From positions 1-55,252 of the forward strand of contig JABANN010000186.1 of assembly GCA_013115125.1 (NCBI GenBank): a stretch of 55,252 bases of DNA, read 5' to 3'. Position numbers and translations under genes: made by a program. The stretch is from Perkinsus olseni. Taxonomy: Eukaryota. How positions within the stretch are numbered: the first letter of the stretch is position 1; each line of letters begins with the position of its first letter. Shown piece by piece: positions 2,891 to 53,414 of this stretch. A model generated the notes under the pieces. The model saw nothing but the letters and a program-made list of their open reading frames with translations. It searched no databases and was not told the DNA's origin.

Positions 2891-5052
2891 GGGTCGCTCT
2901 TCCGCGGCTGATACAACTCATCTAGGGTGAACTAGATTTGTCCCTTCTCGTCGCTCTAGCGTCAGTGTCGTATAGAAGTGTGTTTCTTTGGCCTTCAGGG
3001 ATTGTAGTTGCGCTAGCTGCTATTCAGAGTCCCAGAGCTTGACAAGAGCACGCGTGTTTGTGGTCGACTCTGTGACGTTCTTAGACACGTTGCCAATTGC
3101 CAGCGCGGTGCTCTTCTCCCGCCCTGTTATTGTCTTCTCTTCAGAGCGATGCAATTCCCACCTCTCGAGGGCGCCAAGTTCCACCTGCCCGACAACAGAG
3201 TTATTGTCTGCGATACTTGGCAAGACTTCCTCCGAATCAAACACCTGTGGCGACTCCCGTCACCCGTCTCGCGCGAAGCAGCGAACTAGCTCGTTTTTCC
3301 CTCATCAATGCTCTACGTTGTGTTGATGAACACCACTGCGTGCGAATGAGTTTATAGTTGAACGAGGGTACTGGCTCATTAGACCTTCACCGATAAACTC
3401 AGCTCATCCCCGCTTCATGGTGTGTTGCTAGAGCTCCCACGGTGGGAGTCCTATCAAAGAGGGAATTCAACACAACATGAGGTGTTGGAAGGATACCAGT
3501 TCTTCACCTTGTGTCTGCGTGCTAGTGTACAGGGGTAGAATATTAGCAGTGTTGTTACCAGGGATCGAACCCGGGCCCATCGATAGCCTCACAGCGAAGC
3601 GGAGCGCCACGCCAGTCGGAAATCTTCGCTGTAGCCGCCAGTCTTTGCCATGGCAAGCCCGGGGATCGACACCAACTCTACTACTGCCGTTAGCTCGAAT
3701 GAAGAGCAACAAGAAGGCTCTTTCTCTCCATCAACTGCCAGCTGCGAGCTGAGGGTAGGTTGAGCACGGATCTTCGGCGCCTGGAAGTCAGCAGAATGTC
3801 GTGCAGTTAACGTCGCTCTTCGGCAGTTGATGACCTCCAGGGGACTCTCTCGTTTTCGCAGGGAATCTTAGGTCGAAGGAGGGGGTTTACGAGATTGTCG
3901 TGAGTCCTGATTTTTCTCGGCTAGGGCTCGTCATTCCCGCAAGGCCGATGCTGCTTTTGTGTCTTTGCTTCACGCTATGAAGATCATCCATGAAATGATC
4001 ATTTTTTATTGCTTTTCTCGCCAAATTGCAGCTCGCATAATATGCGTGACTCTCCGATCTATGATAGCGGCTCTTCCTCGTTTCTTATCGTTAACAGGCC
4101 ACCCTGCGTGTTTTCGAATCAGTAGATTTTTCTCTTTTTATCTTAGTCAATCTTAGTCGACGTTCGGCCGACTAGCAAGTTAGTTTAACCGGTCTCTGGT
4201 GGAAGAACATTCCCGCTTAAACGCGAGACCTTCCCTGAGCTACTGAGCGATCAAAATTATCTACATAATGGGTGATTGGACGATTCACAGTATAGTAGTT
4301 ACCTGTATTGTCGACGGCAATTTGCCGTGCAGGCCATCGTCTTCCTTCGAACTGATTGGCGTGGCTTATTGTACCGAGTACTGCTTTATGTATAAAGGAA
4401 CGTCTCAATCGACTGACATGACCTAGAGAAAGATAGTTGGCTTCCTCAGATACAGAAGTTGGAAGAAGAGCTCTGCAATCTACGCCGCCGGTTGGTCTCG
4501 CAGGAGTTGGTCATCCAGGAGCTCTGCGGAATCGGGGTTCAGTGGAAGCGAGTCCAACCGAGCGACGAGGCCCGGGAAGAGGTAATATAGTTTTGTTGAT
4601 GCATGGTAGTGTTCTACACGTGGAAGCCTATGTTTTTTGGTGGAAAGATTTTGCTTCTCATTTTAGGTTGATTCCGTACCCTCCCCTCGAGTGGTTAGGA
4701 GTGCGGTTGTGGCGATAGCGGAAGAGTTAGCAGCTAAAAGAAAGGTTGGATTGCGGGACTGAATAAGTGCTCATAAACGGTTTATTGTCATAGTGAGCGA
4801 TGGAATTTTGGTTCCGAGATTCACTCAGTTCAAGTCGGTCATTCGAGACGGGAAGTTTTGCGTCATTTTGTCATAATTGAGCAAGTAAAAAGTAGAAAAG
4901 TTTTTTGACGACACAGAACTTTTAAAATCGGTCTGTGCCGTTTATGGTTGATAGTTGCGCTTATCTTATGGAGGTGTGCCATCCCTCATTTTGTCGTTCT
5001 TCTCTTGATTATTTTCATTACTCTTCTCCTGTTTTATTGATTCATTATTCCG

Positions 5053-6391
5053 ATGGTCCTCTCCGATGGTAACTTAACAATCATCGCCGAACTCTCCTGT
5101 CTTTTTCTTTAGCGATCTAAATACGTCGTCTATGCCTCCCTCGGTGTGGCGGCGGTACTTAGCGGAGTCATCGCCCGGGTAATAATTTCATTGTTGCAGC
5201 CTCTTTGCATCTTGCTCGCTTCGACCTTAGATACTCTACACTCAATGGCAATACTCATCACGTCTCGAGCATCTCTACGACGCTCTCGTGGCTGAAGGAG
5301 CTGCTCTACCCCCGCTAGAGGAGTTGACTCCGAGGTGACAAAAATCAGTAGCCCTATCGAATGCGGAAAGTGACCTTCGCTTTATCGTCTGGTTCCTGAA
5401 GTAGTCAACACTCGCTGCCATTAGCGTGTAGTATTACGTTCTTTGCTTGAGCAATTACCGCTAGAGGAAGTGATTCCGGGGTGATATAAGTCAACGCCCT
5501 AACGAAATGCTTTTTCGTCTGTGGTGCCTGTAGTAGCCAGCACTCATTGTGTGTGAGTTGTTTGTAATATTGCATGTGCGGTTGAGCAATGATCGGGTAG
5601 TAGATGTATTATATCAATAGGTAAGATACTGTGGTAGCTCAGACTGAAGAATTCTAGATCTATGTCGTTCTATGGTCTTGATTCGTGATTACACTGTTTT
5701 TTGTGATCGGTCGGTGACAGTTTTTTTTTTCACAGCTCGATGAGAAGTTCTGTACGTACGATCTTCCATGCGAAAGAATGGGACGCTTCAGCTAGTGCGT
5801 TCTGTATAGTGTGACGGTATTGGGAGGTTTTCGCACCCACATGTGCTTGTCGTAGACAGTCATGCTCGTTTAGCAATGCGGCTCCTGGGATTTGAACCGG
5901 GGCCATCTGCTCTTTTTCTCAGCTCGATATTCCCCGCTTCGCCAGTCCTGTCGGCCAACGATGCGGCCACGGCCCCAGTGTGGATCCTCTTCGCAGCTGT
6001 CCGATGGATGTCCTAAAAGCTGCACCTCTCGCACCCTTAAAGATACTCTCAGGTTGAATCAAGTTTTCTTGGCCGCGGCATCGGTGGTTGACCGTCTGCT
6101 CAGAACGATTGTTTGGATTCTTGTTGCTGTTGCCGTCGGTTATGGCGTTCTGAGGTAATTTCGTGGCGCGCGACAGTGACTGCAGTATCCACACTACCCG
6201 AATCTTTGAGCGATTCCCTGCAACAGTGTCTGTTCAGGCGTATGAAACCGGACTCGGAAGAAGACGTCACCGAGTCTGAGGGGACCGCCGAGGTCTCCCC
6301 ATCGGAATCAACAACAGTGAGCGGGTTCACCTTAACTTCGGACCCATACCGGAGAGTTCGACGGTCGCCCTCTGACGACTCACTTTGTTGA
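5053..6391 (+). CDS. Possible small multi-exon membrane protein(s)
   Basis: Hydrophobic exon-like segments (YVVYASLGVAAVLSGVIAR; RLLRTIVWILVAVAVGYGVLR|gtaat) and an acidic final exon (MKPDSEEDVTESEG...). Gene structure is uncertain. Confidence 0.3.
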
Positions 6392-7330
6392 AATGGGATT
6401 TCAATCATTGGGTTGCACGCATCTTAGCTTACTTCATGGTTGTATTAAATTTCTAGAGTGCATCTAGAAGTTCAGTCTAGCGTCTAGAATCGTCCAGGTC
6501 TCAATCTAGGCTTGATTCTACTGGTCACGCGTATACTATACGCCGTATAGGAAGCGGGCTTGAAATTCTCTCGATTGATTCCCTCGTTTTCTTAGGCCAC
6601 ATCCGAGAGGTCGACAAAGAGGGAAGAATTAGAGCTGAAGGTATCAGAGTTTTCGAGACGCCGCTCGGTCGAGGAAAGAAGCTCGGCGACGCTGCAGCGG
6701 CGACTGACAGATCCCTCCTGTAGTACGTTTGGGAATTCGACAAATTATGGTGATGGGCTTGAGGAGGTTGCGGTCCGACCAGCTGATGTTGATGGGAGGG
6801 TGCAGCGGCGGTACACTGATCCATCGAGAATTCAACAGGCTAACCGGGAGGCAGCGTTGAGGAATGTCGAGGTTGAGCAAGAGGAGCAAGATGCTCGTCG
6901 GCGGCGTGCAGCCATGCGGTATCCTTTTGGTTGGCAACCGGCAGCATTTAGGCTGCAGGGATGCCCATGGTACGGCCAAGGAGCTTACTGAGATGACCTT
7001 GATGAGGTTTGAACCCGGGTCGTTATCATGAAAGATAGCGGAGACCGCTCGCTCCGCCTCGAGGCTAGCGTAGCTGAGAGTTCCGTGAAGCATGCCGGCT
7101 TCGACTAGTGTCCAGAGGAAAATCCGAGCTCATCGTCCCTCATGATGGAGGCGACTTCCCCCATCTGGACCCGCCGTGATTTCTCCGTTCGTAGCATACT
7201 CCCCTGCACTTTCTATGCATCTTGAGAGTTTTGGGTTATGGTTGGTATGATCAGAGATGTGTGTTTTCTGACACCTCTAGCTATCGTTTGTCTCTAGATA
7301 GATAATTATTCCTGGTGGTAAAAATCCCTC

Positions 7331-9063
7331 ATGTCCTATTACACCCTCCACATCTTCGTCCCGTGCTGCTGCGCTATCATATGTGTAATTACCCCATGCA
7401 ATCGATCGATTGGTCGTCGACATGCTTGCTCGTTTCAGATGATAAGATTCTCCCTTAGCGGAGCTTACCATAGGGCGTTCGCTGGCGTGCCGTGTTTGAT
7501 CGATAAGATTATTCCTAAAGACTTGTCGCCGAAGACAATGCGAAAACTGAAGGAGAACATGTGGTAAGTTACGAAAGATGATGAGGGGAATCCTCGCGAT
7601 TAGAGTGAAGTGTGGTTCTAACAGGGTGAAGGTGGGGGAGGCCATCCGATCATGAGGTATGCCGTTCTGCGTCAGCCTGCGAACGGAGGCTGGCTCGGTT
7701 GAACAGCTATCTTAGTACTTGGGTGCAACGATGATCGTTGAACGATCTGTTGCTGGCGTGAATTACACGAACCCTTTGTATTCGCTCGGAAGGTGATCCA
7801 ATCGGGATGTAGAACCACTGGGCACGCCCGTTTCGCGTATGGGACAGAGTGCTACCAGTGTCATGTTCGAACGATGAGGGGGTCCTTCCAAGTAGATCTG
7901 CTTTTCGAAATCAAAATCATTTCTTCATCAATCACCGTCTTCTAGTCCCCAGTGTAACTCTGATTCTCGGGTCGAAAATGCTGCTCATATATTGCATGTT
8001 CTTAAGGGAAGCTGATCAATCTTTATCGGCTATGAGTCCTTTCCCCTCCATCCCAAGGTACTCTTGTTGGCATTCATTCACCAGCTGCTACGGTTTCTAC
8101 GTCCTCATGCACGAGCAATGGTTCAGCCTTAGCAGACTGCGCAGCGACCCCGTCGGGATGCTCTTCGGTGACCCCGATATTCACGACCGTTCTGTTGGGG
8201 TAGTATGAACGGCTCCCTCTTCGCAACATCAGTTTTTTCAAATCAGCTCGAACGCTACTACTTGGTGGAGATCAGCTTCTGGTGCAGCTGTCTCGCGTTC
8301 ATCGTAAGTTCACTGCGAGACGCTTCGCTCCGCCGTTATTGGAGTTTTCAGATGATCGAGACCATTCGCAAGGACTTCTACCAGATGGTTTTCCACCACA
8401 TCATAACCATCAGCCTGATGGTCGGCAGCTTCTGTAAGTGTCGTCAATGCTGGTAATAATGAAACAGCAATCTCCTTCAGACCTTGGCTACCATCGTATC
8501 GGTCTCACCGTCATTTTCCTTCACAACATCAGTGACGTGCCCCTCTACGTCGCCAAAACCCTCGGTTACCTTGCCGAAAAATTCGACTGTAAGATCTCCT
8601 CCTAGTCGACCGTGTTGCTTAGCTAATTGTTGGTAGGGTTGAAGACTCCGACAGACATCGCCTTCGCCAACTTCGCTTTCGGCTTCCTCTTCTCGAGGCT
8701 GTATGTTTACCCGAAGTGCTGTGTCATCCCTGCTTGCACCTTCGGTACTGTAAAAGTCGATTTTCCTTCTGATAATGGTATTGTTATTTCCTCAGCAATC
8801 GAGTATAAGCGTCCTATGAGGGACTGCATGCTGGTCATTTTCCTAGTGTTGCTACAGTGTCTCCACTTGATGTGGGCCAAGATGATTATCAAGATGATTT
8901 TCAAGACAATCAAACACCGCGGTGTCCTCGCGGTAACTCCGCCTGGTTCTCGTTGAATAGGGAAAATCGTTCATTTTAGGACGGTGATATCCGCAGCGAT
9001 GATGAGGGAGAGAGCACGCCAGCAAGCGAGAAGCCGATCGCTCACAAGAGGAAAGTACAGTAA
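7331..9063 (+). CDS. Ceramide synthase (LAG1/LASS, TLC domain), multi-exon
   Basis: Lag1p motif RKDFYQMVFHHIIT...GYHRIGLTVIFLHNISDVPLYVAKTL, FLFSRLYVYP, LQCLHLMW, C-terminal DIRSDDE and a terminal KRKVQ (KxKxx ER-retrieval-like). Confidence 0.9.
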
Positions 9064-10008
9064 AACGAGACTGTTGTAAAATAGATGAGTTGCGTCGGTT
9101 CGCGCGCTCTCCGTGAGAGGGAAATGTCATTGTGATAATGACCGCCCGAGTAAATACACAAGAGATTATTTTGCACGTCGACCGTGGTGCCAACGGTAAT
9201 TGTTTTAGCCAGCTTCCACTACTGTTTGATGCTGTTGGGTTTCTAAAGTCCGGGGTGAGTAACGGCCAATCAATACGAGGAGCGAGTTTATGGGCGAACA
9301 ATATTGGAAGCACGCAATGAACTACTAATGAATGGAGAGATATACACCGGCAGCCGTTAGATTTTGCACGACTGAACAAGATGAATGTCGGAACAATTGG
9401 ATCAAAAAAACATAAAGAGATCAAAGCAACCACTGCTGCAGTGATTCGCGCGGCACTTCTACTCGTGCCGTGGCTACGAGTACTTGGCTCAAGCGTGTTT
9501 ACTAGATGTGCTCGTCCGTTCACTGGTGACTTCCGCCGAGTGCATCGACGCACCGATATGTGAAGGACGTCGTACCTACAGCATCATATTTGGAGCTTCC
9601 TTCGCTGCAATGCTACAGACTATTTACTAAACTACTGACTAGTAAAATACGCTTTGAAATACGTATTATAGTAGTATACGTAAGTATACTACGGTAAGTA
9701 TTCGAATAGTAGAATAACGCTTACACAAATAGAGCGATGAGACTAGTTGCTAACATGTGAGATTCTCGTAAGGTCGCCTCTACAATACTCACTCATACAA
9801 ACGTTCTATCACCCGAACCAGAATGATCGGTCACACTTCACTTCAACGACCTACGACGCAGCAGATAAAAAATCTACTTCCACCCATACACAAACTAGAC
9901 AACACAACAAAGTTGATGAGATGAGAACGTGATTGCTTAGGGTATCCTTCCTCTCTGAACAATCGTGCACAGAAAGCGTTCTTTGGAACCCTTCACTCAA
10001 TTACAAAA

Positions 10009-11814: not shown

Positions 11815-13093
11815 TCAAATGATCTGCTTGATCTCCAAGAAGGCCCGCATGTAGTGCAATTGCAATGCCGCCAAGATCAGCACACTGGACAGATGTGCTA
11901 CTGTCCACCAAAGAACTCGAGAGTTCGTCGACTCTGCTGTGTCTGTCATGTTCGGCAAAAACAATCTCAACAGGATAGCGAGCAGCAATGCGCAGCTTAC
12001 TGCGATGCACCGCCTCTCTCGCAACGCTATAACGCTGCTGATCCATCAGAGTATCGACCTGTGCACGGTGATTATGAAGACCCACTTTACTACCTATTTA
12101 CTGTCGCACCTTGCTCTTCAGTATCTCCACGAGGTACTTCAGTTCATTGGTATGATCGGTGGTCGCCGCTTGGTCCCCCCCTCGTGACCCATTCTGGCTA
12201 TCGGATTTCTGGAAATAAAAGCTGTAATAGAAGCCTGGGCCCTTCGACCCCCTAGTGGTGAGTGGCACTCACCACTAGGGGGTCGAAGGGCCCACTCACT
12301 GAGTGCTATGTATTTGAGTTGCATTGGAAGCCTGTTGGGCTGGGCTGGGGTAACATGTACACAATTATTATCAGCCTCCGTAGCTCAGTCGGTAGAGCGC
12401 GGCCCTTTTAAGGCCGTGGTCGTGGGTTCGAGCCCCGCCGGAGGTGTTTTTCCAGCGTAAAAATCCGAGACGCGCGTTGCCTTGCGATTAGGTGACACGA
12501 TTACCTTCTCTATTCGAAGACTGAAACTAACTGTCTGAACGCCCTTCGTCCTCGAGGCAAAACATAGCTTGTACGTTCCTGGCTGGCCTGGCAACATTGG
12601 ATAGTACGTTACCAACCTCGGATTGCACATAGTACAAATTCGACAATACGCGCGCGTAAACTCACTGACGGGGACCGCTAGACGACCCTTGTGGTCGTGG
12701 CCCTCCCATACAGAACTGGGGGTTCCACCATCTACTCTCGTCACCGTGGCCACAACCCCTGAGAGGTGGCTGCATCCTGTCGATTTCCTACTCAGCTGCT
12801 TCGAACTTCTTAGCTCACCTTCGTAGCCGTTTCTCCCCACACTGTCATAGCTCCCTTCAATGACTGAGCCAGAATCCACTTCCGGGAGGCCGAAGCATTC
12901 AACTAAAGTTCAGAGAATGTCAAGCACGCACACTGTTAGTTCGATCTCTCCACTAGAACCTTCATGAGTAAAGAGCTCGGCTCTGCAGAGACTTACCCTG
13001 GGCGTGGGGCTTGAGTTCGAAGAACAGCGCCGCCACCTCTGACAGGTGCGAAACAAATCCGATGATACCGATGGTAGCAAGCTTGATCATCAT
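11815..13093 (-). CDS. emp24/gp25L/p24 family (GOLD domain) ER-Golgi cargo receptor, multi-exon
   Basis: Signal peptide plus LFFELKPHAQ|VECF, GTYKLCF...TVSFSL (GOLD), coiled coil VDTLMDQQRYSVAREAVHR, and ESTNSRVLWW-TM-YMRAFLEIKQII*. GT-AG junctions checked in frame for several introns. Confidence 0.9.
12236..12294. repeat. Perfect palindrome, 29-bp arms, 1-nt spacer
   Basis: TGGGCCCTTCGACCCCCTAGTGGTGAGTG-G-CACTCACCACTAGGGGGTCGAAGGGCCCA. Confidence 0.95.
12374..12446 (+). tRNA. tRNA-Lys(UUU)
   Basis: Full cloverleaf: acceptor GCCTCCG/CGGAGGT, D arm GCTC..GAGC, anticodon arm CGGCC-CTTTTAA-GGCCG, T arm GTGGG-TTCGAGC-CCCGC, followed by a TTTTT Pol III terminator. Confidence 0.95.
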
Positions 13094-13334: not shown

Positions 13335-16276
13335 TCACTTGTATTTCGCAAATTCGAGAGTCATTGCCTCGCAAGCGCTGCTGGCTTTGAATCCAATGTC
13401 GGCCTCTTCCGCTATTCTTGTCATCTCGTCATCAGTGAGCTCGAACGAGCTGACCGTAGTCATATTGGAAGCAACCCTTTTAAGGTTGCTTGTCTTGGGG
13501 ATCGTAACGATACCTGCGACGGCTAAAATCGTGGCAGCAAGTATGTTCCCGCTGCGTCGTCAGAACCGCTGCAGCGCCAAGCTGGACGCATACCAAAAGC
13601 GAATAACGTCTCTATTGTTAAACAGGGTCTCTCGGGCTAACTCCAATCCGTGCGCTTCAGATAATTGCCGAGCTTTGCTCACGACTTCGGGTGGGAGCGG
13701 CTGAGCTTGGTATTTCCTCGGAGGCCTTAACGGTCATACTCACAATGCACGACGCGCTCTCCGAAGCTCGTAGTACACGGGTTCTATGAGTGATGATGCT
13801 ATTATCATGAAAGCATATCATACATCAATACAGTGCGGTCGAAAAAGGGTCACAGCTTAAATGGTCCAGATCAGCTGTGGACAAAATTTTCCGACCAGAC
13901 TGTATCTATGATGAGGGATGATGCGATGAGAGTAATGACATTCTTCTTCTTCTTCTTCTTCTTCTTCTTCTTGTGCAGCACCCCTTCGACCGGGCAGGTG
14001 ATAGCCAGTATAGGGGTATAGCTGCGGGCTCAGTTGCTGCCTGAGCCCTGGTAGGAACATAGAGATAGCACGTTACACCGCACAGGGTACTATAGCTGTA
14101 ATGACATTAATCAATATGGGTACGATGATTGAACGGGTTTATAGATTGAATAAAAACGATTTAGCGGTGATGAGGGCCTCTGAGGGTTTCTGAGGGCGAT
14201 TGCGCCCGCACAATTACTACCAGATTGTAGTGCCCAACGGAGGCAGACATCAGCCTCCTGCACTCCATGAGCGGCTGCTACGTCCTGGACGACCCGATTA
14301 TCCTTAGAACCGAACATCTTGCATCGTGCTAGCGGGCAGAACCCCATGATCACTATGCCGTGTTTATCACAGTACCTGGGCTTGACGATTCTCAGTAATA
14401 ACCAGTCTGGCTGAGCGGGGCTTCCAGGACACCGACTACACTTGAATTTGACCATATTATGCGGCGGTTCATTTCATTTCTATTAGCTAAGAATTGGACG
14501 CAGAGACATACATCGCGAAGGGCTTGATGCAAGCATATGATCGAAAAGCATGATTCACAATATACTCTGGACCGAGTTGCGGGTCGAAATGGCCAGAGAG
14601 CCACGCCAGCCGAGAAGACGTCCCCCAAGCGGGCGTGGGCTACCAGCACTGCGCAGAGGTCCATCCCAAACCGGAGCGACGGAGGCGCGATGCGGGTGCT
14701 ACCTTCTAAGCTCTTTCTGCTGCAACCATGGGTGCAGCTCTACTTGGTTAACTGCTGGATACTCGTCTCCAGTGGCTTCAACCAGGTTTTCGATCTGCTC
14801 GATACCGAAGTTGGACACTCCGATAAATCGGCATTTCCCCTGAGATGTCAAACCTCCATCCCCACCACCTACTTTCCGAGGACCCAACACGGGAGAGAGA
14901 AGAAAAACTAATTGCGGTCTGCAATTCGCCGATGGGCAGGTCCTCGGTTCAGGGCGCGTGAGGGCGGGCTCTCATCATCATGGTACCCTGGCTTTTTTGT
15001 GCCATTTTCCCGATGGTCGGGTTAGCGTACTTCTGCAGTGCAGAAGTGAGATTCTGAGAAGGCACTGCGCGCCCTCATCATCACAATCCTCAGCCTCTCA
15101 TTTGATGCATTTTTCGATGGTTCTGTTAGCGTTCTTCTGTACTGCGTGGTGCGAGAATACGGCCGGCGCACCATTCAGAAGTGCGTTTTGTCAGTCACTG
15201 ACCAACGCACTTCCGAATGGTGACTGACCGTCAGTGGTAGAGTGGATGACTGTTAATCAGTAAGTCATCAATTCGAATCACGGCGCATCGACATCCGGCT
15301 CTGAGACCCGAACTGAGAGCCGGGCTCTCCACCTTCGCATAGTGGTATTTACGAAATTCGCATCAACTCATTTCCGCGCTGCGACAGCCGAGCCGCATTG
15401 TAGTATTCATAAAACCGTAACCTACATTTACTACCTCATGCCGAAGCCTCTTCAGCGTGCACCAAGTCTCCACCAGCTTCCCTCCGGCAGGGGTGTGTAT
15501 CAGTACCAAATCCGCATAGTCCGTCTTCAACTTCGCCAAGCTCTCTTCAATGCTCACTCTCGTCGCACGCTCGCCGTGATTCAACTGATTAACCTGAATA
15601 GTACCAAGCCACTATGGTATCGATAATGCCACCCATCAAGTATCCCTTTCGATCAAGCAATCCACCACACGGTGAAAGCAAACTCCGTTCGAGAAAATCC
15701 AGATAGGGGTTGCTCAACTAAAATGATTATTCCAATATTCCCCTCCATTCTGATTAAAGATGCGTCCCTGTAAGGTGTGTTAATCCCCCGGCGGACCATA
15801 TCGCGGCGCGCAGCACTTAACAGACAATTTCATATCACGATAGTCGCCGACACACAGCTCAGTTCCTGTCGACTCCGCGGTGGTACCGCTCGTTCCATCC
15901 CTCATTCTCGCATACCACCGCGCACCTTTATCCCCAGTGGCACACCCACCATGAACAGCAGGTACTAGTCAATAACTCTCTCACAGGTCTACTACACCAG
16001 TGAAGCATACCCAGCCGCTACTACCTTAGTCACAATAAAAATATCTTCCCTAAGGACCCCAGACTCCACCACGCCTTGCCCCACTTCCTCCTCGTTCTCG
16101 TACATCTGCGCTGTGTCGATCAATCTGTATCCACATTGCAGAGCATATTTCACAGCCTCTCGGCATTCACCGTCGTTCGCCAGCCACGTGCCGAGCCCGA
16201 AAGTCGGGATGCTGCCTCCCCCCTTGGAAGAAGCCAACTCCAGAGACTGCGGGGTGTCTGGCAAAGACGATGACAT
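13335..16276 (-). CDS. Aldo-keto reductase (AKR superfamily), multi-exon
   Basis: [82 protein letters not shown] and [11 protein letters not shown] occur across about 5 exons. Confidence 0.92.
13941..13972 (+). repeat. (TTC)n microsatellite in an AKR intron
   Basis: About 10 TTC units. Confidence 0.95.
15169..15222. repeat. Imperfect palindrome, ~26-bp arms, 1-nt spacer
   Basis: CACCATTCAGAAGTGCGTTTTGTCAGT-C-ACTGACCAACGCACTTCCGAATGGTG. Confidence 0.85.
15222..15290 (+). pseudogene. Degenerate tRNA-Asn(GUU)-like sequence in an AKR intron
   Basis: D-arm-like GTCAGTGGTAGAGT, anticodon loop TGA-CTGTTAA-TCA and T-loop-like TTCGAATC. Acceptor and T stems are broken. Confidence 0.6.
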
Positions 16277-17340: not shown

Positions 17341-17403
17341 ATAGTCCATCTTCTGACGAATTGCGTGAAGAATCTTCACGCAACTCGTCAGAAGATGGAC
17401 TAT
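17341..17403. repeat. Near-perfect palindrome, 31-bp arms, 1-nt spacer, 1 mismatch
   Basis: ATAGTCCATCTTCTGACGAATTGCGTGAAGA-A-TCTTCACGCAACTCGTCAGAAGATGGACTAT. Confidence 0.95.
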
Positions 17404-39806: not shown

Positions 39807-41260
39807 TTACTCGTGCTTCCTGGCAGCGTCTTCATCAGACTCCTCCGAGTCAAGTTCACCCTCACTGTCCATCTCATCCTCATCTGAGTCGTAATCGGCG
39901 GCCTCGCCAGTGAAATACCTGAGCATACTCGAAATCCCCGTATAAAGTCAGTTCACCAACACAAACAAATCCACTTCCCCATCTCACAGGGGAAGAGCGA
40001 TGGCTAGAGGCTCTAGCCTTCATCGCGCTCTAGCCTAGAGCGCGAGTAAAGTAAGTTTTCCGAACCATCGCTCATCACGCTCTCAACTCACGCCCGCGAG
40101 AAAGTGCATACGAAATTTCACACGCTAATTTCACACCAGATCGAAGCACACTAGAAACAGCCTCGTAGAAACCTCCAAGCGCCTTACTTGAAAGCACGAG
40201 GCACGATGTTCTCCTTCAAGTCATCAGCCTTATCGAAATCGGCGCTCATGAAGAACTGCAGACGCTCCTCAGCCTCATCAGCGTCCGACTCGGAATCGGA
40301 GTCTTCGCCCAAGAAGATCTCAGGGATGGGATGATCAGGTCCGAGGGGGCTGAAACGAAAAACAGTCACCACAAAAATTCATCGACAGTCACTCGCCAAA
40401 AATCCGATTGTCGTAGGTAAGGCTCTTGCTACTCCGAAAAAGTACGTCTTGAATTCCCAAGCGCTTGAAGAAAGAAGTTTAAGTTTAAACAACGTAACGC
40501 TACAACTCCCAAACCAGCATGCACATGCGAAAAAATACATAAGCTCCCTTAAGACGCTATAATGGTGTAATTAAACTACATTGACACACCTTCAAGAGAA
40601 AGACAACAAAAACACTTGACCTATAAGACCAAAAAGAGCGCGGGAACAGTCATAAGTCCATATCACTAACATAAATCCAAATCTAACGCCCCCAAGTTAC
40701 GTGAAGAATCTGAAGAAGGAATCCCTCTCCTTCTGCACAGTCTTGGTAGCACCAGTCTTCTTATTCTTCTTAACCACCGTCTTCAAGGTGAGATCCTTGC
40801 CAGCCTTCCACGCCACAGAGTCGCTGTCGATGCACTTGATCTCATGACGGAGCATATCGTTGACCTCGCTGAAGTGGTAGGTCTTGCTCAAGGTCTTGTT
40901 CTCAAAGAAGGGGTTCTCGTTGAAGACAAAAGTGATCTTCAAACCAGCGATCAAATCCTCGGCCTTCTCACCGGGGATCTCCTCAGCCTTGATGTCAATC
41001 AAGTGCTCCAACGCCTCCTTGTCGTGGTCCTCAATCTCGGGGCCGAAATTGGCGCTGTTCTTCAACACAGTAAGCCAGAACTCAGGGACGCCGCCCTCGG
41101 CGATGACCTTCGACCTTTCGGAAAGAAGGGGCTCGTACTTGACGTCGTAGGACTTCTCCAAGGCGCGAGTCTCAATCTCCTGCTGACGACGGATGGCGGC
41201 GTACTCGGTATCGAGCGAGTCGAGCTTCTCAATAATGGTGGGGTCGATGGGAGAAGTCAT
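39807..41260 (-). CDS. Nucleosome assembly protein (NAP family), 3 exons (41260-40701, 40349-40188, 39918-39807)
   Basis: GVPEFWLTVLKN, IEDHDKEALEHLIDI, FVFNENPFFENKTLSKTY, WKAGKDLT, SFFRFF, IVPRAFK|YFTGEA and an acidic tail. Confidence 0.93.
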
Positions 41261-41617
41261 GGAGAAACCTTGGTGGAACAAGTGGGAAAAGCTATGGTGA
41301 TGGGTGATCGATTGGAGGAAGCGCCGTCGACCTTAACTTCTTTCGTATCTTGCACGCTCGACCTCAAGATACCTGCAAGGGGATATTATTTACTCCATGG
41401 AACACAATCCGCGCATGATAGCCACGCGCGACACTCGCTAGTGCCTGGGCGTCGGGTCGACACAAAGCGAATTTCGTGGCGCGCGACACTTTTCATTCAC
41501 TCTCGTCTCTTGCGGGAAATTCTCGCGGGTCTATTGGATCCTAGGAGCGGACTCTTTTCTGAAGAATAAGGAATTTTCTTGAAGAAGTCCCTCCCCTTCG
41601 CCTCGCCCTCAGTAACA

Positions 41618-41707: not shown

Positions 41708-41815
41708 ATGGAGCGCGTCTACCACCATAAACGCCCGGTATAATTCCGTTCTTACTCGAGAAGACCGCCCGGAACCGTCGGCATTCGAGTAGTTTTCTCT
41801 CGCCTTCCGTCCACG

Positions 41816-44225: not shown

Positions 44226-46220
44226 CTTTACTGGGTGTTTTTACATGTCGATGTACAAAATAATGATATCATCTGATCCGAAGAGAATCGTGTTAATGCG
44301 GTCGAAGGGGCTCTACTTTTACGATGAGCATTTTCCCGATTTGCTCGAGGAAACCGGAATCGGGATTCCTGGCAGAGTGGACCAACTCGGCCTAGTGAGA
44401 AGGTGGGATCGGTAACGGGCACCTGTGCAGCTCAGACAACCGACGGCCAGGTTGGGCCGACTATCTACTTTGGTCAGTGTTATCGTTCTTTCTATGTTGC
44501 ATCTATATGAACTGGTCCCAGTACTGTCGGTTTTTCTGGACGCCGTAGGATCGTCGTGGGCAGACAAGGTAGTAATGGCAGGCTTACACGTGGGATTAAT
44601 CTTACCACATCTTGACCACTTCGTGAGTGTCTGGAATGAAGAAGCGCTATTATTACGCTGTCGTGTCTGATTCAGTTCCCGGCGCAAACACTGATGACGG
44701 TTAAAGACCGGCTGCCTTCCGAGTGCGAGTGTCATGCCAGCATGACGGTGCCACCCGATTGGCTCCCTGAGTATCCTCACTCTGACCTGCCGGAATATCT
44801 TTCTAGAGTAACTAGACCCGAGCAGCCGGTGAGTTTAAAGGTCGGGTTTTCGGCTATTTTGAGACGCGGAGTTCGGGATACCATCATACTGGTATCGGTC
44901 CACTGCTCACCGGCGACTCTCCTTGTCGAACCGAAGGACTACAGGTGGTACGGGAATCGAACCTCATCGGATTTTTGCGAAGCTCTTCAACTCGAACAAT
45001 TTAATGCAGATTCTTTAGTAAGGGGATGAATGGGTTTGCCGTATTTCGTCATGTCTCATGATGTGCTCAGCTCTATCAATCTCGTGAAAATTGGAGATTT
45101 TTGTCGCGAGGAATATTGGAATATGGAAGAATATTGCCCATTTTTCGCGTTTTTCACGCTACAGGAGCGCTCATACCAACTTTCTATGAACGGGCAGAAG
45201 TATAACTGAGGAGGCATCATGCTACTAGTATTCCATCACTACCCAACCCGCCGTCTGCCGCCGTAGACTGTCCATAATGCATTGCCTTATTAATAGAGTC
45301 TGAGTCTCGGGGTCTCCATTGTAATCGTTTACGCGCACTCAATGACGTCGGATGCATCAGGTTCAGAAGAATCGACCTTCCCCCGGGGTCCACCAGATGG
45401 GACGGTCGCTGTTCTCCTGCGAAATGCGACAAGGTCTTCGCATTGGCCAACGATATGTGGTTCAAAAGGAAATTGCCAGCAGATCTGACGATGCTGAGGA
45501 ATCTTTGCGATGCGGTCTCTCAGGGCGACGAAAGATTCCTGAGGCCAAAAGCACCGTTCGAAGATTGACGTTGAGGGCTTGGTGTAGTTTGCCGTACTTG
45601 GTATTTGAATGACTTGTTTTTCATACTTGCTGACTCGGTGCGCATGATGTTCGACGATGAGGTTGAGCCGTGGTGGTGTGAACTATAAGGATACGGTTGT
45701 AATGATTCTGACTAGACTTGGGTTCAAGTATAAGGAGGGCTCTCTCCCATACTTACGTGGGAGCAGACGAGTGACATTGGCTCTGTCTGACAGAGTCTGT
45801 CATTCCCGTGCGACTCTCCCCGGTGGGTGGCTGCAGCACGCTTTACAATTCATACTTACGCTGGAGGGTAGGAGGATCGAAAGGAGTGGTATCAGCAGCG
45901 CACAAAGAATTATTCATTAATTTTGGAGACCCGATTGACTTGTAGAACTCCCACTGATATCTGACATGATTGAGGAAAGATAGAGAATACAACTAAGAAA
46001 ATTAACGCTAGCATGATAGCTAGGAGGAGACACGCACATTCAGTTGTGACACAGTCCTGTCTCGATTGCTATCGGCTAAAGCCAGTGATCACCATAGGCC
46101 CTGTGATGTAGGGCAGGACCCCTAGTAGCGGTCCCCTACCGTGGTGGCCTCAGTAAACAGACTGCTGTGACAGTGTTCTCGTTCTAGGATTGCTTACCGC
46201 ACGCCCGTGCGGCCTTTGTA

Positions 46221-48440
46221 ATGACTTCTCCCATCGAAGCAATGGCCGGGCCGAGCTTCACCAGTCGGACCTCGACTCAGCGCCGCGGAGACGATGATTT
46301 CTCCCCGGCCTACTATTACTTGAAGGTCTACGTTGGTGGACTGCCTCGGGGAGCCACAGAGGCGGATGTAGTTCAAGGGAAGGGATGTGTTTTCTCGGCT
46401 TGTGCGATGGCCGGAAGTGCTTATTTTCAGAAAATTTGGCAAAAATCTTTTGTGGGAAAATTTTTTCGCGGGGTGACGGTATGTAGTTTTGTCGTTATTA
46501 ATACAATGATATTGAGTATTAGATAATGACAACAAAAGTGATGCTGAGACCAATCTATGGTGTTTTTTATACGGCGAATTTGACTGGCCATCTCCGATGG
46601 TCTGTATTCCATCGGGACTTGGTTATTGCACGGAGCAAGTTTTGCTATGATCGTTGAAAGTTGCGATTTCTTTGGTACGAATATAGCCCAGGGGATTATG
46701 AATTATGCAATTTACCTGAGTCTATCTCTGAGACGTGTAAGTAGTCCGTTGATTGAAAATCTCTCTCCAGTTGCCATTTGGGAACAAGTAAACTGTTACT
46801 TGAGAACAAACTCCCGCGGAATTAAGTATCTGAGGAATCTTTGCTATGCGCAAACTCAGATGCTGAGCTACTTCTCACGGTATGGCCCCGTAGCTGACAC
46901 CTGGCTGTATCGGTCTTCCGATCCGGCCAAGATGAACTTGCCTCCGTACGGATTTGTCACCTTCCGTAACGCCGCAGACGCTGATGCTGCTGTCGCGAGC
47001 GAACACGATTACCAAGGGGCGCACACTCTGCAGGTGAGAGGATTGGGCGAGAGGACGGAGGTTGTCTCAGTATCGGTTGAGAATAGCCTACCTTTACAGT
47101 AATAGCCTAGCTACATCCTACACGTACCATAAGTAGATCGTACTGCTAGTAATCAGGATTACATTTAATTATCATTATTAAATTACGATTACAATTAATT
47201 AGGGCATCGTAATTAAGATCCGCTACATTCTCCTACTAGTAACTAGTAACAGCTACAGTAATTAGTCTCAGTAATAGCCCTCTGAGGAATACTGAGACTT
47301 CTCAACGTACAGGGCGAACAAGCAATTCGTGAACTTTCGGAAAAGTTTCAATCTTTGCGATTCGCAGAACGAACTTGTTCACCCTGTGGTCCCCAACTCT
47401 GATAAAAACTCGCACAGCGTGAAAACAGGACCGGCATTCTTTGGAGCGGAGGTTGCGGGTGTTTCGGAATACGCGAGTTGGTGGTCTCTTCGAAACTCAT
47501 TCTGTGGAGAGAAATATGTCCTTCGTTCGTGGGGCGCGATACCGTTGGGGAGCAGCAAGGTACGTAGTGCGGGAGTGTGCCGTGCCCGTACCGTAATTTC
47601 GTATCATCACGTGCGCGCTGTGAGGCTTCATGGGCAGGCCCTTCTCTGGTAGGAATAGTGATCAGGTTAACTACGCTACGATGAAGAAGTCAGCGTCCTC
47701 GGCTGGAACGTTGGAATCGGCAATACCGAGTGGAGCTTTGGACGAGTCAGCTGTGGGCTCAGTGGCCGCATCAGGCTTGACGATTGCTGGGGCCACTGAA
47801 ACTGAGCTGGGAGAGTTCTTCTCGCAATGGGGATTGGTAAGTACGGGGCGTTAACTGTGCGTCACATTTGTATAGTGGATGGCGGCAGCGTTATCCCATG
47901 GATGGTCGCGGGTTCCATCCGTGGCTGTGGTATCTTCTGCTAAGAAAATGATTGTGTTGTCCCTGCGATGCTCGGCTGCAAGCATAGCCCTCCTTCTGGA
48001 TCGCCCGTCGAGTATACGACAGCGTTGCATTCTCCTCGGTCAGTTCATCATGTGTGTTAAACTGTCACTTGATAGTATCCACCCAGCCCCTTCAAGAATT
48101 GAAGTCGTTGACGACGGGGTGCATAATCTCTGTCGTGTTTTGGTGTTTCTGTTCTCCGAGCGCTCGAGCTCAGGCGTTGTTAGTGTTGAAGTCAGCCGAG
48201 GAACCCTCTAGTTGCCTCGTACAGTACTCGGCGAGGGAGGGCGCGGTGAGACTCCTAGCAGAACCATCGTTGAGCTTCAAGGTAAGGGGAATTTCGTGGC
48301 GCAGTGACGATAACTTGTCCTCGATCAGGGAGCAGCAATAACGGTAACGCAACGTGATGTGCCGGCCAATCTAGGCTATGATGAGGAGTATCTTGTCCGG
48401 AGAGCGACAGCTCGGCATAGAGCGAAGGCAAGGAGTCCCT
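46221..48440 (+). CDS. RNA-binding protein with RRM domain(s), multi-exon
   Basis: RNP2 KVYVGGLPRGATEAD | MLSYFSRYGPVAD...YGFVTF (RNP1), and a second RRM-like GLTIAGATETELGEFFSQWGL...CLVQY. The 3' end is approximate. Confidence 0.75.
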
Positions 48441-50640
48441 ACGAAGGAAGTAGTCCTCGCGGGTCTCTCGCGGTGGGTCGGGTCGGGCCAGTTGTTCGTC
48501 ATCCAGTTGTCCGCCGTGATTTTCTGCACGTAGGGAAATTTCTCCGGAGTGATTGTATCCGAGATTTAAGCGTAGTCGTTTTCTTCGAGTGTATTGGAAG
48601 ACTCCCGCCGCGCTCTAACTCGAGCCTGATTCGAATCTTGCTGGAATCTTATCACCCTCTTTAGCTCAGCACCAATTTGCTGCGAGTCACATTATGTGGC
48701 TGTTCAGTGTTGAGGTTATGCCATTACAGTAATTGTTGGCAGTAATTGTTCTCGAGAAAATTAGAAGAAAATGTGGTACGAATCCGGGAACGCGTCGTGA
48801 CCGGTCCAGATACAGAGGCGAGCCTGTTGGACCTCGGTGACCCGCCGCAGCTGCCGAAACTGCGTGGATACGAATTCTCTATGGGCCGATTGATGGCGGG
48901 AAGGTCGGTTGGTGGGCTGTGGGAAGTTGCTTATAGCTGTTCGAGTTTCGGGACTTTGTTTTCCCCCATTGGGTTGCCTGGCAGAGAATTTTCGTAGGTA
49001 ATTCTAATCCCCAGTTTGATAAAGTAATTCTTGAACTGAGAATCGACTTTGGAATTGATTCTTACACGAAAATGCGGATCCAAAATCGATTCTAGGTTTC
49101 GTGATTTGTTCATTGGACGGCCCCTGAGTGCTGCACGGAACTTGCAATACTGTTAGTCAAGCGAGTAGCAGCGAAAGCAGAGTTTAGTCTCCTCAGGCCC
49201 AGAGGTGAATCCACCGTCCCCATCGAGCTAGTCCCTGTTAATGGAGATAGTGGTCGGTCCAGTGCTGCAGTCCTGCGCCCTCGAAGTGGAGTTGATGTCA
49301 CCTTGAGACGGAAGAGCGGGGACGATGCTGAGTAGGTGCGAATGTTGTGGTCGGCTAACTCGGGGATCGCTCGGCAAGTGAGAACGGCTCTATCTTCGGC
49401 TTGGTCTCGGATTTGTGGATGATATTGGAAATGTGTTCGTGAGTTCGTAGTCCAGCGCGGGTTCCGTCTTGATAAGACTCTTGCTGATGTGCTCAGTTAG
49501 GGAATCTCTGTAGCGATCGATATGCAGTGTAATGAGACGGTGGGCACTGCGTGTTTGCTCTTGGGACTGTCTCACTGGAAATTCATCACCTTTTGTTCGT
49601 GAACCACAATTTTACGCGAATTTGAGAATTGCGGTCTGGTATCGCTTCGCGAGAGAGTACTACGAAGTGACTGTATAAAACAACAATGAAGACAGGATGA
49701 ACTTATATCACCTTCCGGACCATCGGCCTGGCGAGGGTCTTTCAACCTGGCGCTGATGTCTCCTGAGCACCACTACTTCATGCACTTCATGGAGAGGGGC
49801 GGAGTGGACTGGAATTCAGCCCTCATAGGCGTGGTGTGGCATATTGTAGTTCCTCGTGATGGAGAAACTGCAGTATTTTCCCTGATATTTACATTCCATC
49901 ACATTTGCAGTGTAAAACGCGATTTACACTCGGCACTTGACGATAAATCAGTTCTTTCGCGATATGCTCCGTGTGCTGTTATCGCGAAGCGAGAAGCCGT
50001 GCCATACCGCGCGCGAGTCTCTCATTTTTTGCCTCGCGCAAATATTAGACAATCACACAACCTGAACAATGTGAAGAATGCGATTTACACCCCATATTCC
50101 GCGATGAATTAATTTTTTCAAGAAATTCTGTTTTGTGTTTTTTGAAATTGTGTTTTTTTCGCAAATTCTCAATGTGTTTTTCGCGAAATTTTCAATGTGT
50201 TTTTGGCGAAATGATCGTCATCGCCATATGTTTGCGCGAAGTGATTTACCTTCATATCACATCGCTGTTAGCGCTAAGCGCTGAGCGCTTTCCTTCCACT
50301 TTGCGAAAAATGCCACCTCGCATATTACGGTGAAACTCCATTGATGTCGGTCATCAAAATTTGGTATCTTGGCAACTCAGCAGGTCACCTTCGCCGAGGA
50401 GTTGGAAAGCATCGGAAAGTAACGGCGGTGATAATGGTCGAAGTGGCAACAAGAGACGGCGGAGGGGATCGAGCGATCTGTCGAGAAGTCGGAGGCGGAG
50501 CGATGATAAGACAACGTGAGTTCAATTTATCAATCGCCAGCTCTTCCGGGAACTCGTAAATAGTTCTTCTCCGCGCTCCGTAGCGTGAGCCTGGGCTCGC
50601 GGACGGATACGGAACCTCTCGTGGGGGTTCTCCAACTGAA

Positions 50641-50912
50641 GATCATGGAGGAAAGTACAGCAAGGCTCGGTTGTATTTTAGGCCTTCTCCGAGTCGGCGA
50701 GATGTTACTTGATGGTGTGTCACTGCGGGTTGTTCATACTAAGCTATTGAGTAACGACTGTCTGATGCTGTATGCCTGTGGTGGTGGTGGTGGTGGTGGC
50801 TGTTGCCTGTTGTTCCTCATGCAGGAATTTCCAACGCGCTCCAGAAAGAGTTGCGTTATGGTCAAAGTATCGCCATCGATTATTCCTGAAGGTCGACAGT
50901 GTCAAGTTGGCA
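50641..50912. repeat. Copy 1 of a ~270-bp duplicated segment (copy 2 at ~54878-55162)
   Basis: Long near-identical stretches, e.g. GGCCTTCTCCGAGTCGGCGAGATGTTACTTGATGGTGTGTCACTGCGGGTT. The copies differ in (GGT)n length and in a short indel. Confidence 0.9.
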
Positions 50913-51572
50913 CGCTTCAATGCAGGGCCAGTGATTCACTGGCTCATGTATGGTAGCGTCGGTCGGATCGGTAACGGCTCTGACGGATGAACCTTTGCCG
51001 CTCAACGTTCTCTGCCTTTGACTAAGGAATCCTGAGTAAGCATGAAACACGTGTCGCCATGGAACATATTAACCTCTCGTAACAGAGCTGTAACAAGTCA
51101 CGGAGTTCCGTCTCTGGTGTTTCGCGGGCTGTTAGAAGCGTGCGCCATCTGATCAGCTCACAACACAAGAGCAGCTTTTCGATGGGCTACAACCGAGGCT
51201 CCACCGCGTTCCCGCTTGAAGGTTGGTTATGGCCTCAAGTCGCCATAAGAGCGGAAAAACAACCGCCGCCTGAAAGAGATCATACACAAATTGTGTATGA
51301 TCTGTGTAATCATGTGTGTTAGGGGGGCGTACGAGCACTAACGATAGCAGGACCAGTCCACGATTGACGAACACCATAGGCCGGAAAGAGACGATGTATG
51401 AAAAGGGACAACTACAAAATGGCTAACTCGCTAATGGCTAAGGATCGATCAACATCGTAAGTTACGCATATACATTGGCGCGCCGAACTTGAACGGCTCT
51501 GCAGCAGAGCCTCTGCTAACAACTCTAACAATGTGCAACACAGTACATCAGGGACGAGCGCTTTGATCAGCT

Positions 51573-52664
51573 TTACGCGAGTCGAGCAACTCCAAGTTTA
51601 CCCTCAGATGGACGGAACTCGAAGTAGGTTCCGACTAGCACGAAAGCCGGTAGTCTCCACATCTCGTTAGGGTCAAGTTTAAAAGCTAGAGAGCAAGTCC
51701 CAGCAGTATTTCGGGCATAGTTGGTAACATATATCGGGACAGCTTGGTCATCATCAGCCTCACCGAGGCACATCTTAATGGGCGGTATGAACCTCATGAA
51801 GGCGCAATCGAATACGAAGAGCTCCAGTCCGGGAACCCATTGATAATTAACAGCAACTCCAGCTGAGGCTGAAGCCTCAGCGAAAATCTGCGGGACCAGC
51901 TTGCGAAAGTAAAAGCTTGGTGCAAAGATAGCTTCAGCTCTGGTATCAATGATCCCACTTTCATCACCAAAGCTCGAGGTCCTCTGACCAAGTCTTACCA
52001 TTCCGACTGTGACCCTGTAACCCCTGTCGCCTGGGCGGCCCCTGAGCGGGGTAAACCTTAGTGGTCCCTCGTACAAGCTGGGGTCTCCGCCGCCAAGTAG
52101 GAGCTCCCCGGTCACTGCACCACAGCGATGCTTTCTTAGGTAGAGCGCGAATCTCGTGCTTGCTACTGTCCCTTGTAGTTGGGACATAAAAGGGGGATAA
52201 CTGGGAGTGTCTTCAGGTCCAAGACCGATAGAATGAAACGGTAAGGAGTTATCGGGTGCCTCATGCCCGTGAACCAATCCATAATGGATCCGTATACCAC
52301 CAGTTCCGCCGATTGTCGCCCATCCTCGGCTCCGAAATATATCAACCTTCGTCCCGTCTGCGTAAGTGATTGTCGAGGTGTCGGACGGTCGACACAGGTC
52401 GCACCTGTAGGAGCCGATAGACGGATTGCTACAATAACCCTGATCGTAAGTACTGTCGAACCAAGTATTCCACAAGAAGAAGGTGGCGGAGGAGCCAGTA
52501 TCGATCAGGGCATGCATCTTTTGGGTGTTAATGCTTATGTCTCCGAGCAGAGCATATCCGTAGCCAGGTAAAAAGTCATAGGATGTTGGTGTTCTGAGTA
52601 CTTGTCCGTGTGTGATAAAGAATACACCAAGCCAGACGGGTAGAAGTACGGAGGCTCCGCGCAT
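51573..52664 (-). CDS. Secreted pepsin-like aspartic protease (A1), intronless; second catalytic motif altered
   Basis: Signal peptide, ALIDTGSS, flap ITYADGT, FALYL...GELLLGG.D..LYEG.L.F.PL, IIDTRAEA and C-terminal YFEF....GKLGVA. Confidence 0.9.
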   Translation of the reverse strand: MRGASVLLPVWLGVFFITHGQVLRTPTSYDFLPGYGYALLGDISINTQKMHALIDTGSSATFFLWNTWFDSTYDQGYCSNPSIGSYRCDLCRPSDTSTITYADGTKVDIFRSRGWATIGGTGGIRIHYGLVHGHEAPDNSLPFHSIGLGPEDTPSYPPFMSQLQGTVASTRFALYLRKHRCGAVTGELLLGGGDPSLYEGPLRFTPLRGRPGDRGYRVTVGMVRLGQRTSSFGDESGIIDTRAEAIFAPSFYFRKLVPQIFAEASASAGVAVNYQWVPGLELFVFDCAFMRFIPPIKMCLGEADDDQAVPIYVTNYARNTAGTCSLAFKLDPNEMWRLPAFVLVGTYFEFRPSEGKLGVARLA

Positions 52665-53339
52665 TTCAGCTTTGAAGTCACGAATAACTCACAAAGCCAC
52701 TGATCAGGAATATTCGACCAGATCAGGTCAGGAAGACTCTAAAAAAAATCCGCCGAGAATGCAGATGCACTACAACTCAGTACAGTGCGGCTATTTGAGA
52801 CGGGGCTCAAAGAGTGGTAAAATCAGACTCGACGAAAGCTAAGCGATAATGTGACCTACAGCTTACTAAGCTAAGCTAAGCTTATCGTGGCACGTATACT
52901 CGTGCGCGCGAGTGCAAAGTGCATAATGAGGTCAGATGATTATCTGATACTAATTGTACCCAGTAGCAGTAACCTAAGAGCTGAGTAGTTCTAAACCAGG
53001 CTCAGCCTGGCAGGCTGTAACTGTTTTATAGCTAGCACTAGAGTCGTCACTCAGTTGTCGCTATAGTGCATCCGTGTGCACTGTAGCTTGGTACAGTGTG
53101 GAATAATCTAGAACGCATACTCATGCACGCGAGTGCACGGCACAGAAAGAAATCAGACAGTAGTCTGATACTAATGATACGCAGTAGGATTGAAGATGAT
53201 TGTAGCGATAGTAGCCATTGACTCCTAGTCAAACAGCTGGGTAGTACTCAACTTGACTGGAGCTGTTACGTAGCGTACACTGTAGTCGTCACCATGTTGC
53301 CAGTATTGTGGACGTGATCTAAGGTCACCCGGGCTTACT

Positions 53340-53414
53340 GCTACGCTTTGTCTATGTTTATACGTGTAGACTACACGGTGTAATCTACACGTATAAACAT
53401 AGACAAAGCGTAGC
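53340..53414. repeat. Near-perfect palindrome, 37-bp arms, 1-nt spacer, 1 mismatch
   Basis: GCTACGCTTTGTCTATGTTTATACGTGTAGACTACAC-G-GTGTAATCTACACGTATAAACATAGACAAAGCGTAGC. Confidence 0.95.

Follow-up and report, generated by a model that had tools for sequence, protein, structure and literature searches.

The 55,252-nt stretch of Perkinsus olseni DNA analysed here (contig JABANN010000186.1, positions 1–55,252, assembly GCA_013115125.1; hereafter the window) is rich in palindromes that share no sequence and have a single unpaired base at their centre. These palindromes are, with high probability, excision footprints of DNA transposons of the hAT superfamily. Most of them are halves of a 22-nt unit, ABCDEFG-h′g′f′e′d′c′b′a′-BCDEFGH (an 8-mer followed by its reverse complement and then by a second copy), which amounts to two palindromes with 7-bp arms and 1-nt centres placed 7 nt apart (hereafter a scar). 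The geometry, the 8-mer rule, the gain of 14 nt relative to empty sites, a bias in target sequence and the presence of hAT elements with 8-bp duplications were all observed directly.

Counting every perfect inverted repeat of the window by arm and spacer length, against ten dinucleotide shuffles, left spacer 1 as the sole strong anomaly: 53 repeats had arms of at least 7 bp compared with 4.4 in shuffled sequence, with a peak at arm 7 (36 versus 3.0). Spacers 2, 8 and 12 were mildly raised (11, 9 and 9 versus 2.8, 2.9 and 2.5 for arms of at least 7 bp), spacer 0 gave 5 versus 2.9 and the remaining spacers 2–6. The excess is not local, as spacer 1 gave 111 versus 21 in 310 kb outside the window (31 stretches of 10 kb from eight other contigs that were picked for being long and were known from repeat searches), where spacers 0, 2, 3 and others were near background. 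An earlier, sequence-only reading of the window had claimed this excess, which is confirmed, and had listed 17 palindromes, approximately one-third of the sites. The 1-nt centre was as described in 16 of these; the other (15169–15222) contains a 1-nt indel and a mismatch and is a 1-nt-centre palindrome after all (centre 15196, extent approximately 15170–15221). The long arms at 12236–12294 (perfect, 29 bp), 17341–17403 and 53340–53414 (one mismatch each) were described correctly, and the arm at 51504–51516 is 7 rather than 6.

The unit itself was counted for lengths n of 4–12, with local shuffles as the baseline in the window. At n = 8, the window has 9, 15 and 27 sites at 0, 1 and 2 mismatches, respectively, compared with 0, 0 and 0.3 in shuffled sequence; at n = 7 the counts are 0, 1 and 5 versus 0, 0 and 3.3, and versions with n = 9–12 are absent from the window. 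In the 310-kb sample, n = 8 gave 23, 40 and 58 sites versus 0, 0 and 1, and n = 9 (0, 0 and 1) and n = 10 were at background. Another 32 near-random loci (89,285 bases; chance hits of pattern searches, with true element ends, a shared repeat and overlapping loci excluded) contained 14, 22 and 31 sites at n = 8. The density at no more than one mismatch is 129–246 sites per Mb in the two samples, the window being richer (272 per Mb), and if the samples are typical the 39.9-Mb genome probably holds 5,000–10,000 scars. Scar counts in 10-kb segments are overdispersed, with a mean of 1.3 and a variance of 2.7.

The 8-mer rule extends beyond the 22-nt unit. A partner centre was present for 39 of the 53 palindromes of the window, compared with 4 of 46 chance-level controls with arms of 5 bp. 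Among centre distances in the window and the 310-kb sample, distance 7 accounted for 32 exact sites, distances 1–3 together for 12 (9 expected) and distances 11–34 for four. Long palindromes keep the rule through a more distant partner, with centres up to 52 nt apart: the 8-mers at the centre pairs 12265/12299, 17372/17424, 18155/18181, 33415/33438, 40010/40034 and 15303/15322 are identical, and those at 15196/15229 differ by one letter. The joins lie at microhomology, with an 8-nt overlap in the 22-mer and 2-nt overlaps at 12265/12299 and 33415/33438, and some long-arm sites carry unexplained filler. The sequence-only reading had remarked that the palindromes are often chained, which is real, and had overlooked what the chaining reveals: paired centres obey the rule of an 8-bp target duplication and therefore point to transposon excision rather than to the generic breaks or template switching that it had proposed. 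The likely cause is a family of mobile elements, though a scar retains no element sequence. The sites of the window are as follows (X7 is a second isolate, compared with the window below).

6529–6550, exact 22-nt scar with the 8-mer GCGTATAG (pattern scan).
7726–7747, exact 22-nt scar (pattern scan).
18188–18209, exact 22-nt scar directly behind the long-arm scar 18133–18188.
31212–31233, exact 22-nt scar; X7 has no gap here.
34755–34776, exact 22-nt scar, common to X7.
35242–35263, exact 22-nt scar adjoining the end of a dispersed repeat.
45781–45802, exact 22-nt scar (pattern scan).
51496–51517, exact 22-nt scar, the halves of which are the previously listed palindromes 51495–51511 and 51504–51516.
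52996–53017, exact 22-nt scar within a 306-bp dispersed repeat (paralogue comparison).
12236–12306, long-arm scar; centres 12265/12299, same 8-mer, arms 29 and 6, 2-nt overlap.
15170–15236, long-arm scar; centres 15196/15229, 8-mers one letter apart.
15296–15329, two-centre scar; centres 15303/15322, same 8-mer, interior partly palindromic.
17341–17432, long-arm scar; centres 17372/17424, same 8-mer, arms 31 and 8, short unexplained insert.
18133–18188, long-arm scar; centres 18155/18181, same 8-mer.
33405–33452, long-arm scar, previously listed as a chained pair; centres 33415/33438, arms 10 and 14.
40002–40045, long-arm scar; centres 40010/40034, arms 8 and 11.
53340–53414, compound site, probably two nested events; a 22-nt scar (53363–53384, one mismatch) is central in a palindrome with 37-bp arms.
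3434–3455, 22-nt scar with two mismatches, in the third copy.
4307–4328, 22-nt scar with two mismatches.
46118–46139, 22-nt scar with one mismatch.
50269–50290, 22-nt scar with one mismatch.
31212–35263, hot spot with approximately 19 scars or single 1-nt palindromes; scars with one mismatch at 31581, 34220 and 34839, and with two mismatches at 31928, 32435, 32643, 32824 and 33461.
33095–33115, empty 8-mer at 33102; X7 has exactly the predicted 14-nt insertion.
32508–32530, empty 8-mer at 32515; the 14-nt insertion of X7 matches the prediction at 13 of 14 letters.

A two-mismatch site at 52859, considered as a private scar, is common to the paralogues of the repeat around it and was assigned to that repeat.

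The direction of change was read from paralogues and from isolate X7. At the scar 52996, 11 of the 12 paralogues of the 306-bp repeat have the 8-mer once and are exactly 14 nt shorter; the twelfth is unaligned there. Among insertions that distinguish paralogues, a strict filter gave nine events of 14 nt versus 3, 3 and 1 of 12, 13 and 15 nt, and seven of the nine fit the 8-mer rule within two mismatches (6–9 nt, 2, 1, 3 and 1 events; 5 nt, 14 events). A loose filter gave 17 rows at 14 nt versus 5, 3 and 2 rows at 12, 13 and 15 nt; merged by hand, the 14-nt rows are 13 events, nine within two mismatches of the rule, two at 3–4 mismatches and two unrelated. One 28-nt paralogue insertion resembles two nested scars and one of 36 nt resembles a long-arm scar. 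An exact +14 scar also lies within a hAT transposase relic and is missing from its paralogue (L018:1478–1499, contig C2922).

Isolate X7 is approximately 4% diverged from the window (158 differences in 3,988 bases) and was compared with it by eye over 12 of 25 indel rows. A private 14-nt insertion of X7 behind 33102 agrees in 14 of 14 letters, and another behind 32515 in 13 of 14, with the insertion predicted from the window's own 8-mer at each site. At 31838 (19 nt) and 32024 (18 nt), X7 insertions repeat the 8-mer and have complemented boundary bases, with interiors partly unexplained; one X7 insertion carries an uncomplemented base at its boundary, and three short ones among the indels listed are off the rule. 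The X7 contig has 133 inserted and 27 deleted letters, and the two deletions listed account for all 27, so no window scar in 31215–35202 is missing from X7. The window scars in this interval are therefore older than the split from X7, and the X7 lineage has gained two to four more.

The palindromes are also present in independent data, compared as contigs. X7 carries the window palindromes of 31215–35202, and pieces of two runs from other studies (X9 and X10) cover 31727–33012 with 0 differences, X9 additionally covering 33323–33490 and 34176–34353, again with 0 differences. All 542 sampled words of 30800–36000 occur in six runs of three samples, all of which are possible sources of the assembly. 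A library or assembly fold-back artefact, which the sequence-only reading had raised as a concern, could draw on the contig end (55182–55252), a run of 71 G that is probably an artefact of two-colour sequencing and suggests that short-read chemistry artefacts exist in the assembly. The recurrence of the same palindromes in contigs of a 4%-diverged isolate and of runs from two other studies makes such an origin barely credible, as do the mismatches of the scars, which are consistent with decay (137 exact and 91 with one mismatch among 228 unique scars pooled), and their avoidance of long open frames.

X9 and X10 skip segments bounded by CT and AC (33168–34877, 34988–35034 and others) in the manner of a spliced minus-strand RNA over 31727–35143. 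The joined exons contain no frame longer than 140 aa, which suggests that the transcript over the scar hot spot is a long untranslated region or a non-coding RNA.

Scars are scarce in long open frames: none of 55 lies inside a frame of at least 300 aa (7.0 expected), and 4 of 55 lie inside frames at a threshold of 150 aa (17.8 expected). Every +14 scar shifts the reading frame, 14 being indivisible by three. The avoidance of long frames is consistent with purifying selection or with insertion bias; the argument is in part circular, as the +14 insertion itself breaks a frame.

The genome contains the hAT dimerization domain at 11 places. C293 contains a complete hAT element of 4,094 bp with 11-bp terminal repeats and an 8-bp duplication, a transposase split over several frames and one partial relative. 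C521 is a collapsed element of a second hAT family, with an open frame of 791 aa that contains DUF4371 and Dimer_Tnp_hAT (Pfam) and matches what we take to be the hAT motif patterns (D, D, CxxH, RW and E). Four contig ends overlap this element by 73 bases, two of them on its left side and two on its right. In one copy, an exact shared 8-mer lies outside intact ends and the ninth bases differ, so that the duplication is inferred across a contig break. In the other copy, the terminal four bases are gone at both ends and each flank is a half-scar of one shared 8-mer (left arm 8, right arm 6, both centres complemented); on the simplest reading of the sequence, both flanks would have been hairpinned, opened and rejoined to the element.

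In the reconstructed targets of the 228 unique scars, 188 of 456 positions carry the letter of a motif with T second and A seventh (41% versus a background of 24%, P = 4 × 10−16), a weak bias. The same motif, nTnnnnAn, is described as the target motif of hobo (PMC11226609) and of Hermes (PMC6900584). A TcBuster-type preference for nnnTAnnn was not seen among the scar targets.

Searches for an abundant hAT miniature inverted-repeat transposable element (MITE) used two terminal patterns, the hits of which were largely due to chance. The first had 36 hits versus 9 in the control and only three true ends among 12 loci inspected; the second had 109 versus 115 with one mismatch, and five true ends among eight exact hits. 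A terminal-pattern match in the window (583–593) is not an element end. Tandem duplications of 9 nt (23 versus 0.2) were considered as Mutator footprints, alongside those of 6 nt (99 versus 16); of the 9-nt class, 22 of 23 proved to be runs of a trinucleotide and the last a trinucleotide-like repeat. Near a hAT domain, an inverted repeat with perfect 26-bp arms (L050:5342–5398) has a 5-nt spacer and is an exception to the 1-nt rule.

The proposed route to a scar, in which hairpins form on the flanks, are opened at a distance from the tip and anneal, is modelled on known hAT biochemistry. Transposases of hAT elements are reported to form hairpins on flanking DNA (PMC5499845, PMC6900584), hAT breaks to have a one-base overhang (PMC2921059) and Ac/Ds footprints to be palindromes centred on the complement of the base adjoining the element, mostly joined at microhomology (PMC5873905). 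The pattern counted here includes such a centre by construction and has 137 exact sites. Insertion would duplicate the 8-bp target ABCDEFGH. At excision, the transposase would nick one base into each flank and seal the flanks as hairpins, each with a single unpaired base complementary to the one that adjoined the element. Host nucleases opening the hairpins far from the tip would leave long palindromic 3′ tails, and because both flanks share the 8-mer, the tails h′…a′ and A…H would be complementary over 8 nt, anneal and, after gap filling, yield the 22-mer with a net gain of 14 nt. Tails opened further out and joined at shorter microhomology may give the long arms. The same tails could anneal through B…G and restore the empty site without trace; it is among the visible products that +14 dominates. 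Of the earlier claims, a DNA-level process with fixed geometry is upheld (a fixed 1-nt centre and a fixed 8-nt unit), as is its view that these are neither RNA hairpins nor one repeat family, given unrelated sequences and sites private to single copies or isolates; hairpin opening and fill-in of the P-nucleotide type, which it had offered, is the right kind of chemistry.

As for the host side of repair, a Ku domain is present (contig C3024), which leaves loss of classical end joining unsupported as the cause of the fixed scar. A search made exon by exon, with one or two candidates scored, recovered a single DRMBL-family nuclease, which resembles SNM1A (E = 2 × 10−45) more than Artemis (9 × 10−18), so that the absence of Artemis is only a hint. 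The SNM1A-like nuclease recalls yeast, in which long footprint arms are reported to be common (PMC5873905). More broadly, and leaning slightly towards doubt ourselves, we put forward the conjecture that Perkinsus may repair hAT hairpins in an unusually standard way (far opening, with the duplication as homology), perhaps with an SNM1A/Pso2-type nuclease and without Artemis; that its genome may be a readable record of 5,000–10,000 past visits by transposons with approximately a dozen hAT transposase loci left; that scars may accumulate at lineage-specific rates; and that the 22-nt rule could serve, in the genome of any eukaryote, as a library-free signature of hAT activity since vanished and of the mode of hairpin repair.

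Several observations weigh against hAT excision. We infer excision, having met none of the sites in both states, first with an element and then with a scar; no occupied allele was found among the 4.4 kb of X7. For so many scars, few hAT copies survive, and no abundant hAT MITE was found by the two terminal patterns. The 791-aa C521 protein has no PDB match at E ≤ 1, its assignment to hAT coming from Pfam and from the motifs above. The ends of the C521 copy with half-scars are paired across an assembly gap by their sequence, and this copy could instead have inserted into an older scar and then suffered end damage. Fourteen of the 53 palindromes have no partner centre, compared with approximately 4–5 expected by chance. 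The classical Ac footprint, with two complemented bases between 7-mers (centre distance 1), shows no excess in the window and sample (5 versus 6.5), and centre distance 2 a slight one (6 versus 1.5); deletion forms would escape this count. In X7, a split 14-nt insertion near 31746 breaks the rule, and 26 nt at 31675–31700, present in the window and not in X7, are off the rule.

The closest competitor to hAT excision keeps the hairpin route and assigns it to another transposon with an 8-bp duplication, a Mutator-like element (MULE) or, less likely, Merlin. MULE domains occur 18 times in the genome, some of them within frames of 500–935 aa on short contigs; Muta1 is reported to make flank hairpins (PMC5499845) and duplications of 8 or 9 bp (PMC5225508), and Merlin relics are reported in P. 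marinus (PMC8101967). Against this stand the missing n = 9 class (0, 0 and 1 sites in 310 kb, none in the window), a length usually represented among the 8–10-bp duplications of MULEs, the target motif nTnnnnAn, as Muta1 is described as having no target preference and as excising precisely in approximately 90% of cases when the duplication is present (PMC5225508), and the fact that the sole element seen touching half-scars is a hAT. No element ends or duplication lengths were found in 12 MULE stretches. We consider this origin improbable.

Origins that involve no transposon fare worse than a MULE. Short-range template switching during replication or repair, which writes an inverted copy, can make perfect inverted repeats and insertions (PMC8794818), and would sit well with the absence of a nearby element at most scars and with the 14 unpartnered palindromes. 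It accounts for neither the constant 8-mer nor the constant 1-nt centre nor the nTnnnnAn bias, does not explain why partner centres as much as 52 nt apart share an 8-mer, and would be expected to produce variable spacers and lengths, whereas spacers 0, 2 and 3 are at background in 310 kb; we regard it as very improbable. That the palindromes are selected hairpins or cruciforms, acting as RNA structures or protein sites, might be suggested by a hot spot in a stretch that is apparently transcribed and spliced. We give this next to no credence, as the palindromes are unrelated in sequence, occur within repeats that are decaying and within the relic of a hAT transposase, and are each private to one copy or isolate, with turnover between isolates partly seen.

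The window has other features. The 306-bp repeat (52766–53071) has TG…CA ends and exists in dozens of copies, a 4-bp direct repeat bordering many of them; we take it to be a solo long terminal repeat or a Ginger-like element. An element of approximately 880 bp (53925–54805), presumably PIF/Harbinger-like, has inverted ends starting GGGCCTATTTCAC and CTG on both sides, and cuts a local duplication (50569–50912 and 54806–55161; approximately 80–100% identity). The window begins (1–76) in a young multicopy end similar to this element, 97–100% identical at many contig ends. A 13-nt GC-rich motif, possibly a promoter element, occurs seven times on both strands (6160, 20950, 21025, 21113, 25052, 28295 and 41473), and a relative of it lies in an 82-bp tandem repeat (19516–19756). 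A tRNA-Lys(TTT) gene (12374–12446) lies approximately 70 bases past the scar 12236–12306, and an Rfam scan of the window found tRNA only. The window also encodes an aspartyl protease of an expanded Perkinsus family (51573–52664; its best matches come from Perkinsus olseni, at 55%, and P. chesapeaki) and a nucleosome assembly protein (40697–41281), and has an RRM match (46626–47102) and a weak cupin match (38444–39259).

Excision footprints are usually too varied to recognize without the element, whereas one genome suffices for calling the +14 form with near-zero false positives (0 expected at 0–1 mismatches in 310 kb). Scars of this form are a natural insertion map and a record of past jumps, read from sequence alone, and provide polarized presence/absence markers for isolates of a parasite of shellfish aquaculture. 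They record how an alveolate opens and joins DNA hairpins, and how a transposon family reshapes non-coding DNA while hardly any of its own sequence stays behind, a change that repeat libraries would overlook. Any eukaryote can be scanned in this way to ask where such repair occurs.

The chemistry of the scars is the textbook hairpin model and is already known. V(D)J coding joints (RAG and Artemis) share with the scars the off-centre opening of a flank hairpin, which gives palindromic additions. Cutting by RAG is at the border, and the resulting palindromes are even and a few bases long, whereas the scars have an odd centre and arms of at least 7 bp. Ascot-1 of Ascobolus and the Tam3 niv alleles reportedly show hAT excision with palindromic additions or long inverted duplications, at single loci. 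A flank hairpin is described for Hermes (PMC6900584), and the hobo and Hermes target bias is that of the scars; TcBuster is reported to leave footprints with complementary insertions (PMC3499496) and, unlike the scars, prefers nnnTAnnn. These are single-element assays, in contrast to scars spread through a genome. A genome-wide survey in rice likewise recovered excision scars from genome comparison, and differs in that most of its scars were deletions or filler DNA, that it recorded no excision of a hAT element and that no fixed signature emerged (PMC4423477). In the literature we found no report of such scars in Perkinsus or of a genome-wide +14 signature, and PMC6635534 is silent on the genus; single-locus footprint tables may list +14. 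Closest are Ac/Ds in plants, Saccharomyces and Candida, which share the 8-bp duplication, P-nucleotide palindromes and frequent microhomology (PMC5873905, PMC2921059), with arms reported to reach 20 nt in yeast (PMC5873905, PMC2921059). Published Ac/Ds footprints are described as heterogeneous and often short (the longest in Candida, 3 nt; in sugar beet, 1-bp exchanges or deletions). In Perkinsus, by contrast, a single product, joined with the entire 8-mer serving as microhomology, is the commonest recognizable class, arms reach 29–37 nt and the scars are fixed in the genome at approximately 130–250 per Mb; it is the dominance, the density and the use as a signature of the +14 product that seem to be new.

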